This document shows, in pieces, positions 49,987 through 56,674 of a DNA stretch of 64,000 nt. Position 1 is the stretch's first letter, and each line of letters starts with the position of its first letter. Below the pieces are notes generated by a model. It worked only from the letters and a program-made list of their open reading frames with translations. It did not search any database and was not told the origin of the DNA. Source of the stretch: Escherichia coli (lineage in GTDB: Bacteria; Pseudomonadota; Gammaproteobacteria; Enterobacterales; Enterobacteriaceae); the NCBI RefSeq assembly GCF_048403405.1, contig NZ_CP183129.1, one strand, 5' to 3'. Made by a program: the position numbers and the translations under genes.

Positions 49987-51030
49987 ATGCGCTATCGCAT
50001 TTTCCTTCTCTTTTTTTTCGCTTTGTTGCCGACGTCTTTGGTGTGGGCGGCACCAGCGCAACGGGCGTTTTCCGACTGGCAGGTCACCTGTAATAACCAA
50101 AACTTCTGCGTGGCGCGTAATACGGGCGATCATAACGGACTGGTGATGACCCTGAGCCGCAGCGCCGGGGCGCATACCGATGCCGTTTTACGTATTGAGC
50201 GCGGCGGGTTGAAGTCGCCGGATGCGTCTGAAGGGGAGATAGCGCCACGGCTGCTGTTAGATGGTGAGCCGTTGGCGTTAAGTGGTGACAAGTGGCGGAT
50301 TTCACCATGGTTATTAGTAACCGATGATACGGCAACCATCACCGCGTTTTTGCAGCTGATTCAGGAAGGGAAGGCAATCACCTTACGCGATGGCAATCAG
50401 ACCATTTCTCTGAATGGCTTAAAAGCGGCGTTGTTGTTTATTGATGCTCAGCAAAAGCGCGTTGGCAGTGAAACCGCGTGGATAAAGAAAGGGGACGAAC
50501 CGCCGCTCAGCGTACCGCCCGCGCCTGCGCTGAAAGAGGTCGCGGTGGTTAACCCAACGCCGACGCCACTCTCACTCGAAGAACGCAACGATTTGCTGGA
50601 TTATGGAAACTGGCGGATGAATGGTCTGCGCTGCTCGCTTGATCCATTGCGTCGAGAGGTAAATGTCACTGCGCTGACCGATGATAAAGCGCTGATGATG
50701 ATTAGCTGTGAGGCAGGGGCCTATAACACCATTGATTTGGCCTGGATTGTGTCGCGTAAAAAGCCACTGGCCTCGCGCCCGGTTCGGTTACGTTTGCCGT
50801 TCAACAACGGTCAGGAGACGAATGAACTGGAACTGATGAACGCAACATTTGATGAGAAATCGCGTGAACTGGTGACCTTAGCGAAAGGGCGCGGATTAAG
50901 CGATTGTGGCATTCAGGCGCGCTGGCGCTTTGACGGTCAGCGTTTTCGCCTGGTGCGTTACGCCGCAGAACCCACCTGCGATAACTGGCATGGGCCAGAC
51001 GCCTGGCCCACGTTGTGGATCACCCGTTAA
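49987..51030 (+). CDS. ypfG: DUF1176-family periplasmic protein YpfG
   Basis: 347-aa track ORF with signal peptide (MRYRIFLLFFFALLPTSLVWA). Confidence 0.9.
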   Translation: MRYRIFLLFFFALLPTSLVWAAPAQRAFSDWQVTCNNQNFCVARNTGDHNGLVMTLSRSAGAHTDAVLRIERGGLKSPDASEGEIAPRLLLDGEPLALSGDKWRISPWLLVTDDTATITAFLQLIQEGKAITLRDGNQTISLNGLKAALLFIDAQQKRVGSETAWIKKGDEPPLSVPPAPALKEVAVVNPTPTPLSLEERNDLLDYGNWRMNGLRCSLDPLRREVNVTALTDDKALMMISCEAGAYNTIDLAWIVSRKKPLASRPVRLRLPFNNGQETNELELMNATFDEKSRELVTLAKGRGLSDCGIQARWRFDGQRFRLVRYAAEPTCDNWHGPDAWPTLWITR

Positions 51031-53155: not shown

Positions 53156-54106
53156 TTATAGTTTGGCGGCAAGAAGATCTTCCAGTTTGCGTTGATCAAC
53201 GGCGAACAGACGAATGCCTTCAGACAGTTTTTCTACCGCCATTGCATCCTGATTGTGCTCCCAACGGAACTCCGCTTCGCTCATGGGAGCTGGGCGTGGG
53301 AACGTCTGAGAAGGTGGGATTAATTTACGTACCACTGGCGAAACTTTTTCCTGCAGCTCCTTCAGCAAATTCGGTGCGATAGTCAGTCGATCGCAGCCGG
53401 TTAAGGCGAGGATTTGTTCGGTGCGACGGAAGCTCGCGCCCATCACAATGGTTTCATAGTGGTGTTGCTTATAGTAGTCGTAGATATTGCGTACTGATTT
53501 AACGCCTGGATCTTCTTCCACCACATACGGGTCCATCGGCTTGCGTGCCTGATACCAGTCATAAATACGCCCGACAAACGGCGAAATCAGAAAAACGCCC
53601 GCTTCTGCACAGGCCCGCGCCTGTGCAAAAGAAAACAGCAGCGTCAGGTTGCAGTTAATACCTTCTTTTTCCAGCTCTTCTGCCGCGCGAATTCCTTCCC
53701 AGGTTGAAGCCAACTTGATCAAAATGCGTGATTTCTCAACGCCTTGTTGCTGATACAAGTCCACCAGATGGCGCGCCTTCTCAATACTCTTTTCTTTATC
53801 AAAAGAGAGGCGTGCATCAACTTCTGTTGACACGCGACCGGGTACGATTTTGAGAATTTCAGCACCGAAATTGACCGCCAGTTTGTCACACGCTGCGACC
53901 ACCTGTTGTTCCTGGGTTTTGCCATTTTTTCTACCCCAGGCGATAGCATCGTCTATTAAATGCTCATATTGTGATAATCCGGCAGCCTTGAGTAACAGCG
54001 AAGGATTGGTGGTGGCATCCTGGGGATGATAATGGCGAATGGACTCAATATCGCCGCTGTCTGCCACGACAGTGGTGAACTGTTTGATGCCGTCTAACTC
54101 GTTCAT
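53156..54106 (-). CDS. talA: transaldolase A
   Basis: 316-aa track ORF ([22 protein letters not shown]). Directly upstream of tktB. Confidence 0.95.
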
Positions 54107-54394
54107 AGGAAATACTCCTTGAAAAGTAAAGTGTTAGATGAGTGCGTTAATTCACACTTCTGAGAAATTTCGCTAAACGCATCAAAAAAGCATAGCAGAC
54201 AGGCATGGTATTGCTGGATTAAGCAGGTAACATCAGTGTTATAGGATTATTACCAAAACATTATATTAATGGTGAGAGTTTGGACTTGCTCAAAGTCTGT
54301 AGACTCCGGCAAGGTAATAATGTGCGCCACGTTGTGGGCAGGGGCTGTTGCCCACACACTTTATTTGTGAACGTTACGTGAAAGGAACAACCAA

Positions 54395-56674
54395 ATGGAT
54401 GACCAGTTAAAACAAAGTGCACTTGATTTCCATGAATTTCCAGTTCCAGGGAAAATCCAGGTTTCTCCAACCAAGCCTCTGGCAACGCAGCGCGATCTGG
54501 CGCTGGCCTACTCACCAGGCGTTGCCGCACCTTGTCTTGAAATCGAAAAAGACCCGTTAAAAGCCTACAAATATACCGCGCGCGGTAACCTGGTGGCGGT
54601 GATCTCTAACGGTACGGCGGTGCTGGGGTTAGGCAACATTGGCGCGCTGGCAGGCAAACCGGTGATGGAAGGCAAGGGCGTTCTGTTTAAGAAATTCGCC
54701 GGGATTGATGTATTTGACATTGAAGTTGATGAACTCGACCCGGACAAATTTATTGAAGTCGTCGCCGCGCTTGAACCGACCTTCGGCGGCATCAACCTCG
54801 AAGACATTAAAGCGCCAGAATGTTTCTATATTGAACAGAAACTGCGCGAGCGGATGAATATTCCGGTATTCCACGACGATCAGCACGGCACGGCAATCAT
54901 CAGCACTGCCGCCATCCTCAACGGTTTGCGCGTGGTGGAGAAAAACATCTCTGACGTGCGGATGGTGGTTTCCGGCGCGGGTGCCGCAGCAATCGCCTGT
55001 ATGAACCTGCTGGTAGCGCTGGGTCTGCAAAAACATAACATCGTGGTTTGCGACTCAAAAGGCGTTATCTATCAGGGCCGTGAGCCAAACATGGCGGAAA
55101 CCAAAGCCGCATATGCGGTGGTGGATGACGGCAAACGTACCCTCGATGATGTGATTGAAGGCGCGGATATTTTCCTCGGCTGTTCCGGCCCGAAAGTGCT
55201 GACCCAGGAAATGGTGAAGAAAATGGCTCGAGCGCCAATGATCCTGGCGCTGGCGAACCCGGAACCGGAAATTCTGCCGCCGCTGGCGAAAGAAGTGCGT
55301 CCGGATGCCATCATCTGCACCGGTCGTTCCGACTACCCGAACCAGGTGAACAACGTTCTTTGCTTCCCGTTCATCTTCCGTGGCGCGCTGGACGTTGGCG
55401 CAACGGCTATCAATGAAGAGATGAAACTGGCGGCAGTACGCGCGATTGCAGAACTGGCCCATGCGGAACAGAGTGAAGTGGTGGCTTCAGCTTATGGCGA
55501 TCAGGATCTGAGCTTTGGTCCGGAATACATCATTCCAAAACCGTTTGATCCGCGCTTGATCGTTAAGATCGCTCCTGCGGTCGCTAAAGCCGCGATGGAG
55601 TCGGGCGTGGCGACGCGTCCGATTGCTGATTTCGACGTCTACATCGACAAGCTGACGGAGTTCGTTTACAAAACCAACCTGTTTATGAAGCCGATTTTTT
55701 CCCAGGCTCGCAAAGCGCCGAAGCGCGTCGTTCTGCCGGAAGGGGAAGAGGCGCGCGTTCTGCATGCCACTCAGGAACTGGTAACGCTGGGGCTGGCGAA
55801 ACCGATCCTTATCGGTCGTCCGAACGTGATCGAAATGCGCATTCAGAAACTGGGCTTGCAGATCAAAGCGGGTGTTGATTTTGAGATCGTCAATAACGAA
55901 TCCGATCCGCGCTTTAAAGAGTACTGGACTGAATACTTCCAGATCATGAAGCGTCGCGGTGTCACTCAGGAACAGGCTCAGCGTGCGCTGATCAGTAATC
56001 CGACAGTGATCGGCGCAATCATGGTTCAGCGTGGCGAAGCCGATGCAATGATCTGCGGTACGGTGGGCGATTATCATGAACATTTTAGCGTGGTAAAAAA
56101 TGTCTTTGGTTATCGCGATGGCGTTCACACCGCAGGTGCCATGAACGCGCTGCTGCTGCCGAGTGGTAACACCTTTATTGCCGATACCTACGTCAATGAC
56201 GAACCAGACGCAGAAGAGCTGGCGGAGATCACCTTGATGGCGGCAGAAACTGTTCGTCGTTTTGGCATTGAGCCGCGTGTGGCTCTGTTGTCGCACTCCA
56301 ACTTTGGTTCTTCTGACTGCCCGTCGTCGAGCAAAATGCGTCAGGCGCTGGAACTGGTCAGGGAACGTGCACCAGAACTGATGATTGATGGTGAAATGCA
56401 CGGCGATGCAGCGCTGGTGGAAGCGATTCGCAGCGACCGTATGCCGGACAGCCCTTTGAAAGGTTCCGCTAATATTCTGGTGATGCCGAACATGGAAGCT
56501 GCCCGCATTAGTTACAACTTATTGCGCGTTTCCAGCTCGGAAGGTGTGACTGTCGGCCCGGTGCTGATGGGCGTGGCGAAACCGGTTCACGTGTTAACGC
56601 CGATCGCATCGGTACGTCGTATCGTCAACATGGTGGCGCTAGCCGTGGTTGAAGCACAAACCCAACCGCTGTAA
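54395..56674 (+). CDS. maeB: NADP-dependent malic enzyme
   Basis: 759-aa track ORF ([23 protein letters not shown]). Malic-enzyme domain plus C-terminal PTA-like domain. Confidence 0.95.

Follow-up and report, generated by a model that had tools for sequence, protein, structure and literature searches.

What is the purpose, if any, of a perfect inverted repeat in the spacer between the divergent genes talA and maeB of Escherichia coli? A preliminary description had noted the 8-bp repeat about 40 bp upstream of the maeB start and proposed that it could be either the operator of a dimeric regulator or a hairpin in the 5' UTR that affects translation. The product of maeB is a central anaplerotic enzyme that generates NADPH, and its expression is already known to be controlled at several points: ArcA acts at the promoter, CsrA at the ribosome-binding site and, reportedly, Spot 42 also takes part. 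The main questions then are whether the repeat belongs to the promoter or to the leader of the message, and whether it would work as DNA, as RNA or not at all. We addressed these questions computationally in a window of 64,000 nucleotides of E. coli DNA (all positions below are counted from its first letter), in other E. coli genomes and in the corresponding spacers of other Enterobacteriaceae.

Results and Discussion

Location of the repeat in the maeB leader

Read directly from the sequence, the repeat consists of TGTGGGCA, an 8-nt spacer GGGGCTGT and TGCCCACA, with coordinates and arms as first described and its 3' edge 38 nt before the maeB ATG (Table 1). The arms are complementary at 8 of 8 positions and the stem has no outward extension, T54332 and C54357 being unable to pair; in plus-strand RNA G54341 and U54348 form a ninth pair, and the loop is then 6 nt. 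The flanking genes are annotated as talA and maeB by RefSeq in 5424 of 5426 complete E. coli genomes, and the spacer between their start codons measures 288 bp. A repeat finder returned no other inverted repeat of at least 8 nt in this spacer. For perfect 8-nt arms separated by 3–12 nt, the window as a whole holds 51 registers (about 24 loci), as against 12.5 ± 4.1 in first-order Markov simulations of the window, and the chance expectation is about 0.06 such repeats per 288-bp spacer. The repeat is thus unremarkable genome-wide and mildly unusual within the spacer.

Table 1. Features of the talA–maeB region (window coordinates)
Feature	Position	Strand	Basis
talA (ATG at 54106)	53156–54106	minus	Open reading frame and RefSeq annotation
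ArcA-P box (repressor site, -49 to -7)	54225–54267	plus	PMC3798270, Tables S4 and S6
-10 hexamer TATATT	54262–54267	plus	7 nt upstream of the mapped TSS
Mapped maeB TSS	54274	plus	Kim et al. 2012, supplement of PMC3415461, NC_000913 (U00096.2) 2576520
5' arm of repeat, TGTGGGCA	54333–54340	plus	Sequence, repeat finder
Spacer/loop, GGGGCTGT	54341–54348	plus	Sequence, hairpin scan, RNA fold
3' arm of repeat, TGCCCACA	54349–54356	plus	Sequence; aligns with Citrobacter ...GTTACCCGCGCCAC
T-rich tail 3' of stem, CACTTTATTTG	54357–54367	plus	Terminator-like scan call, alignments
Invariant block, ACGTTACGTGAAAGGAAC	54371–54388	plus	Alignment invariants
maeB coding sequence (NADP-dependent malic enzyme, 759 aa)	54395–56674	plus	Open reading frame and RefSeq annotation

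A sole transcription start site (TSS) for maeB was reported by Kim et al. (2012, PMC3415461) at U00096.2 2576520 on the minus strand, with 611 reads and a 121-nt 5' UTR. Its position was converted as 2630794 minus the U00096.2 coordinate, and the conversion was checked against the sequence of the ArcA box. The repeat occupies +60 to +83 of the maeB mRNA, the stem starting 59 nt past the TSS. Because transcription starts at 54274, the repeat lies in the 5' UTR and not in the promoter, which answers the question that the preliminary description had left to TSS mapping; this placement rests on one TSS study plus the fit of the ArcA box.

The ArcA-P site, AGGTAACATC...ATTATATT, was placed at -49 to -7 of the maeB TSS (Park et al. 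2013, PMC3798270), and the arcA mutant showed a 4.9-fold increase of maeB (PMC3798270). Since the box fits these positions and is conserved across genera, we take the promoter at 54274 to be the working one; its operator is the ArcA box, not the inverted repeat. The TATATT -10 hexamer is weakly conserved in relatives and missing in Salmonella. A consensus scan found no sigma-70-like site on either strand, and the promoter calls therefore rest on the published TSS and on conservation. Entries for maeB and talA are absent from the sigma-network supplements of Cho 2014, and no talA TSS was found in the table of Kim et al. A match in a SELEX sigma-factor paper was set aside, as it refers to the eutS/maeB spacer and not to that between talA and maeB.

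Two further observations concern the promoter region. RMDEC465 carries A54265G within the mapped -10 hexamer, changing TATATT to TATGTT. At 54237–54254, in the ArcA-box region, relatives have a perfect palindrome, TGTTAT-N6-ATAACA, which is degenerate in E. coli (TGTTAT-AGGATT-ATTACC). Judged by its sequence, the palindrome could be the site of a second regulator, or the ArcA repeats read on both strands.

A predicted stem-loop followed by a T-rich tract

The preliminary description had missed the T-rich tail that gives the repeat its terminator-like character. A terminator scan, which required at least 5 T in 8 nt starting no more than 2 nt from the stem, flagged the plus strand as terminator-like with 9 pairs (5 of them G-C), a 6-nt loop and the tail CACTTTATTT; the sequence after the stem is CACUUUAUUU. 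The tail passes this rule, but it opens with the three bases CAC, and an A breaks its T-run (TTTATTT). In relatives the tail is CAC followed by T5-6, and CACTTTATTTG is the E. coli counterpart of the CAC-TTTTT(T)-G run conserved in Salmonella, Citrobacter and Enterobacter. The predicted fold has an energy of -16.5 kcal/mol, with z = -1.3 against dinucleotide shuffles; fold z-scores are weak overall (-0.4 to -1.3). Within the full leader the hairpin has a predicted pairing probability of 0.97.

E. coli shares the arrangement of a hairpin and a T-tract between -62 and -35 with two Salmonella lineages, five Citrobacter, one Enterobacter and Mangrovibacter; the background rate of such terminator-like elements is 0.05 per 90 nt. 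E. cloacae and Leclercia carry GGGTG(A)...(T)CACCC, then T4-5. As the T-run is inherited, it was held fixed while the 45 nt upstream of it were shuffled, and an abutting stem of at least 5 pairs was found in 7 of 13 species where 2.2 were expected. The stems are unlike between lineages (UGUGGGCA/UGCCCACA, GUGCGGC/GCCGCGU and GGGUGAC/GUCACCC); the GTGCGG arm is common to Salmonella and Citrobacter, leaving about three independent stems, so that shared ancestry inflates the cross-species enrichment. In E. fergusonii the stem and the T-run have both been lost. Taken together, the comparison suggests that a hairpin before the U-run is favoured.

RNAalifold found no covarying helix in the leader alignment. 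An Rfam cmscan of 53500–55000 with E up to 10 gave two chance-level matches elsewhere and none that is relevant. The Term-seq tables of Adams et al. (2021, PMC7815308) are uninformative for this element, since they are empty from 2560305 to 2581778, maeB's own terminator included.

Two other terminator-like sequences were seen in the window. On the plus strand at 54051–54078, a hairpin of 11 pairs with the tail ACTGTTTGAT lies in the talA coding region, antisense to talA, and is probably fortuitous. On the minus strand at 50991–51010, the inverted repeat TGGGCCAG-n4-CTGGCCCA corresponds to the Term-seq 3' end at NC_000913.3 2581778 (+). This end, annotated as antisense to ypfG, is the tktB terminator, and the match confirmed the mapping of coordinates.

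Ribosome-binding site and neighbouring regulatory sites

Does the hairpin control access to the ribosome-binding site? The 156-nt transcript from the mapped TSS was folded as wild type, with G54338A, with either arm complemented, with both complemented and with the hairpin deleted, and the predicted mean unpaired probability from the Shine-Dalgarno sequence to AUG+5 stayed at 0.60–0.62 in all hairpin variants. Occlusion of the ribosome-binding site was rejected, as its predicted accessibility is unchanged whether the hairpin is intact, mutated or deleted. According to these predictions the hairpin is a self-contained module on which the accessibility of the ribosome-binding site does not depend. 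Of the roles first suggested for the repeat, that of a leader hairpin stands as a predicted structure, whereas an operator and an effect on translation find no such backing.

Downstream of the hairpin, the invariant block at 54371–54388 holds the Shine-Dalgarno sequence AAGGAA (54382–54387) together with GGA motifs that CsrA could recognise and, at 54371–54383, a candidate site for Spot 42. CsrA represses a maeB-GFP reporter that extends from -100 to +100 and includes the repeat, and its predicted site is in the Shine-Dalgarno sequence. maeB is a reported target of Spot 42, for which PMC8534726 cites a physical interaction from RIL-seq. The candidate site, ACGUUACGUGAAA, is predicted to pair with nucleotides 43–56 of K-12 spf at -13.2 kcal/mol. 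At this site ACGUGAAA is the best Spot 42 partner in most of the Escherichia/Salmonella/Citrobacter/Enterobacter group, with the pairing in each species only marginally above shuffles (fractions 0.04–0.18 in the better cases). Unconstrained prediction of Spot 42 duplexes was discarded, as it returned meaningless full-length duplexes or matches to Spot 42's own terminator. A hairpin and U-rich tract immediately upstream of an sRNA site could be a contact for Hfq. An EttA paper reported no change for maeB.

Conservation across genera

The spacer was aligned with those of 7, and later 13, other Enterobacteriaceae. It is strongly conserved in blocks, and the repeat occupies the sole segment that varies in both length and sequence. 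The conserved blocks comprise AAAAAGCATAGCAGA; GGTAACAT..TGTTATAA.TTGATAACAA in the ArcA region; GAGAGTTTGG-N6-TTCAAAGTTTG; a GATAAT/GATACT hexamer; and TTTTTGA.CGAAACGTGAAAGGAAC, directly 5' of the maeB ATG. The repeat was not found in the aligned spacers of E. fergusonii, Salmonella, six Citrobacter, four Enterobacter-like species, Leclercia and Superficieibacter, and in distant Enterobacterales the leader is short and has nothing that corresponds to the repeat segment. The Citrobacter sequence GTTACCCGCGCCAC aligns with the E. coli 3' arm, so the 3' side is ancestral and the 5' arm new. The sampled TalA cluster members yielded no E. albertii or cryptic Escherichia clades, and on this sample the repeat is dated only to some time after the split from E. 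fergusonii.

The invariant leader and promoter blocks around the repeat are more intriguing than the repeat itself. At 54185–54199, about 80–95 bp upstream of the talA start codon, AAAAAGCATAGCAGA did not vary among the 8 species aligned first. At 54274–54299 the block GAGAGTTTGGACTTGCTCAAAGTCTG (GAGAGTTTGG-N6-TTCAAAGTTTG in relatives) starts exactly at the maeB TSS and is nucleotide-invariant in 14 Enterobacteriaceae; no coding signature, covarying helix or FliA ChIP site was found for it. On the minus strand the same positions resemble a sigma-E-type promoter (AGACTT-N16-TCTCA) that would face talA. A sigma-28 reading of CAAAGTTT-N14-G(C/T)GATAA was rejected, the spacer being 3 nt too long and the locus not being in the FliA ChIP paper.

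Variation within E. coli

The repeat is also polymorphic within the species. Eight E. coli alleles of the spacer differ at 11 positions, of which 5 lie within 54338–54359. Over the 60 nt that surround the repeat, 4253 records match the window exactly and 1172 do not; 78% of genomes have the exact sequence and 22% differ. G54338A is carried by 558 E. coli genomes (about 10%), including CFT073, Nissle 1917 and the type strain ATCC 11775. It creates an A.C mismatch with C54351, which is unchanged, so that there is no compensation, and it halves the predicted pairing probability of the hairpin (to about 0.5). In RMDEC465 the 3' arm has C54352T, for which a G.U pair is kept in the plus-strand RNA only, and the spacer/loop has a 1-nt deletion and G54342A. 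C54359A is polymorphic in the T-rich tail. Such a pattern, as far as the alleles tell, would be unexpected for a sequence-specific operator and expected for a structure under weak or no selection. Anyone building maeB reporters or 5'-UTR constructs, the CsrA reporter from -100 to +100 being an example, should note that the leader has a terminator-like hairpin and that it differs between K-12 and B2-type strains (CFT073, Nissle).

Interpretation of the repeat and its alternatives

The explanation that we favour, tentatively and with a little less than even confidence, is that the repeat is an E. coli-specific, weakly constrained, terminator-like cis element of the leader, a hairpin with a U-tract that may serve as a weak terminator or pause site or as a structural or docking element. 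Transcribed within the 121-nt maeB leader, it would act, if at all, as a stem-loop of the plus-strand RNA, with eight Watson-Crick pairs, one G.U pair and a 6-nt loop, and with UUUAUUU following after three bases. It would be the version, recently remodelled in E. coli, of a GC-rich hairpin/T-run module located 35–60 nt before the maeB start codon, of which Salmonella, Citrobacter and some Enterobacter have forms with different stem sequences and a common T-run. We infer termination, pausing or factor docking at the hairpin, and its likeliest effect would be that of a weak, constitutive intrinsic-terminator or pause signal trimming promoter read-through into maeB. It may have a second role as a structured, U-rich docking point beside the conserved block for CsrA, Spot 42 and the ribosome. 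The perfect 8-bp symmetry would then be incidental, and the constraint on it weak.

The main rival to this explanation is a fully neutral origin. The repeat would be functionless, a product of turnover in a GC-rich part of the leader that is free of constraint, lies between two conserved blocks and happened to become self-complementary in the E. coli lineage. In its favour are the location in the only spacer segment that varies in length and sequence, the absence from E. fergusonii, the clustering of SNP positions among the eight alleles at 54338–54359, the differences in 22% of genomes with a stem broken in 10%, the roughly 12.5 such repeats expected by chance in 64 kb, the fold z of only -1.3 and the predicted indifference of the ribosome-binding site to the hairpin. 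Against it stand the excess of stems abutting the conserved T-run in sister genera (7 as against 2.2 in shuffles), the length of the E. coli stem, whose 9 pairs are far over the 5-pair threshold, and the keeping of the exact allele in 78% of E. coli genomes. On balance we consider a neutral by-product somewhat unlikely.

Could the hairpin instead work as an attenuator under regulation, or mark the 3' end of a short leader RNA? [quoted passage not shown] In one form of this proposal the U-tract would be a checkpoint, at which ArcA-controlled transcripts end about 90–95 nt downstream with read-through set by Hfq/Spot 42 and CsrA; there would possibly be a short leader RNA with the invariant 5' block GAGAGUUUGG-N6-UCAAAGU, and E. 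coli would have rebuilt the stem that E. fergusonii lost. We regard both the general proposal and this form of it as improbable. A terminator-like module 3' of a strongly conserved 50-nt 5' leader domain does recall such an arrangement, as does the reported regulation of maeB by CsrA and Spot 42, and a 16-codon ORF (54320–54370), with AAGG six bases upstream, spans the hairpin. However, pairing between the upstream segment 54297–54314 and the segment after the hexamer, as expected for an anti-terminator, was no better than in shuffles, with a median fraction of 0.29 (0.81 in E. coli), and matched the reversed-sequence control; the apparent complementarity lay between the 15-nt variable segment and the hairpin's 5' arm. 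Nor is the upstream ORF conserved in length or sequence: from the ATG at 54320 it has 16 codons in the window (MCATLWAGAVAHTLYL), ending at 54370, 24 nt before the maeB ATG, while it has 4 codons in C. werkmanii and 10 in Salmonella; in C. sedlakii it forms a fusion with maeB, and Leclercia lacks its ATG. A longer frame from the ATG at 54269 is open in 14 of 14 species (0 stops, as against 40 and 6 in the other frames), but its variable columns number 11, 11 and 13 by codon position, with no third-position excess, and it starts 5 nt upstream of the TSS; the constraint is at the nucleotide level and not that of a protein. Neither the Rfam search nor the covariation analysis lends the proposal a structure, and no short RNA is annotated here in K-12.

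A separate observation concerns the sequence just 5' of the upstream ORF's ATG, where the window has A and K-12 has G at 54312 (AAGG/AGGG).

We judge it highly improbable that the hairpin is a 5'-terminal stabilising stem-loop. A second promoter, with AATAAT (54316–54321) as its -10 element, would fire at about 54328–54329 and place the hairpin 4–5 nt from the mRNA 5' end, where it could block 5'-end-dependent decay. The hexamer is kept as GATAAT, GATACT or TATACT out to Pectobacterium, Photorhabdus and Providencia, about 48–72 nt before the ATG, whereas Salmonella has not kept the -10 of the mapped promoter; and in the hypothetical short transcript, deletion of the hairpin lowers the predicted accessibility of the ribosome-binding site from 0.62 to 0.52. 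Yet one dataset (Kim et al. 2012) has no TSS at about 54328–54329, and in Salmonella and Citrobacter the equivalent TSS would fall within the 5' arm itself, which would prevent the hairpin from forming. The consensus scan likewise gave no promoter-like site, and the ArcA box fits the upstream promoter instead. From its sequence AATAAT looks like an ancestral -10, and a second, condition-specific promoter may exist.

An operator, at which a dimeric transcription factor would block elongation or act from downstream of the promoter, is scarcely credible: it has in its favour a perfect 8-bp dyad with an 8-bp spacer, the only such repeat in the spacer, and against it a position at +60 to +83 that neither overlaps nor adjoins the promoter, no adjoining regulator gene, no second copy in the 64-kb window beyond a 3-mismatch match (0.39 matches expected; the observed total of 2 was reached in 9 of 100 shuffles) and, unlike the protein-binding blocks, no conservation in other genera or E. 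fergusonii. It is the hypervariability of the segment, its absence in relatives and the asymmetric, uncompensated SNP that breaks the stem in 558 genomes (about 10% of E. coli, the type strain among them) that make this reading so unlikely.

By itself the repeat matters little. The value of the analysis is mostly one of clarification: the repeat belongs to the UTR, it is no operator, and the predictions give it no gating role at the ribosome-binding site.

Comparison with known systems

The gene shares its name with the MAEB RNA motif, the "metabolism-associated element in Burkholderia" (Weinberg et al. 2007, PMC1950547). That motif is a tandem-repeated Burkholderia hairpin unrelated to the maeB gene, and apart from being a hairpin in the 5' regions of metabolic genes it has only the name in common with the element described here.

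Operators of the LacI/GalR and CRP types have dyad symmetry, as does the repeat with its two 8-bp half-sites. A CRP site spans 16 bp, whereas TGTG...CACA at maeB spans 24 bp. The repeat further differs from operators in lying at +60 to +83, in not being conserved and in having asymmetric natural variants, and the documented repressor site, the ArcA direct repeats, is 65–130 bp upstream of it.

With the ompA-type 5' hairpin the maeB hairpin shares a stable leader structure that is clear of the ribosome-binding site. To act as a stabiliser, a hairpin has to begin no more than a few nucleotides (about 4) from the mRNA 5' end, and in contrast the maeB hairpin starts at +60 of the mapped transcript; only a transcript from an active second promoter, starting at about 54329, would bring it close enough. 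The ompA 5' hairpin is reportedly such a 5'-UTR stabilising stem-loop (Emory, Bouvet and Belasco 1992).

The closest likeness is to intrinsic terminators in 5' leaders. The maeB tract differs from that of a typical intrinsic terminator in starting after CAC and in being interrupted (UUUAUUU), and, unlike leader terminators, it has a broken stem in 10% of strains and has disappeared from E. fergusonii. It also differs from leader attenuators, as the search of the maeB leader found no anti-terminator or conserved leader peptide. What it has in common with the terminators of 5' leaders is a GC-rich stem of 8–9 pairs, a short loop, a T-rich tract on the sense strand and a location downstream of the promoter and upstream of the ribosome-binding site. 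Its 9 pairs and 6-nt loop agree with the GC-rich stem of 5 or more pairs and the loop of 3–8 nt by which intrinsic terminators are recognised. As with many terminators, the structure of the maeB module is conserved across genera and the sequence of its stem is not, and the repeat is in this respect another instance of a familiar type of element.
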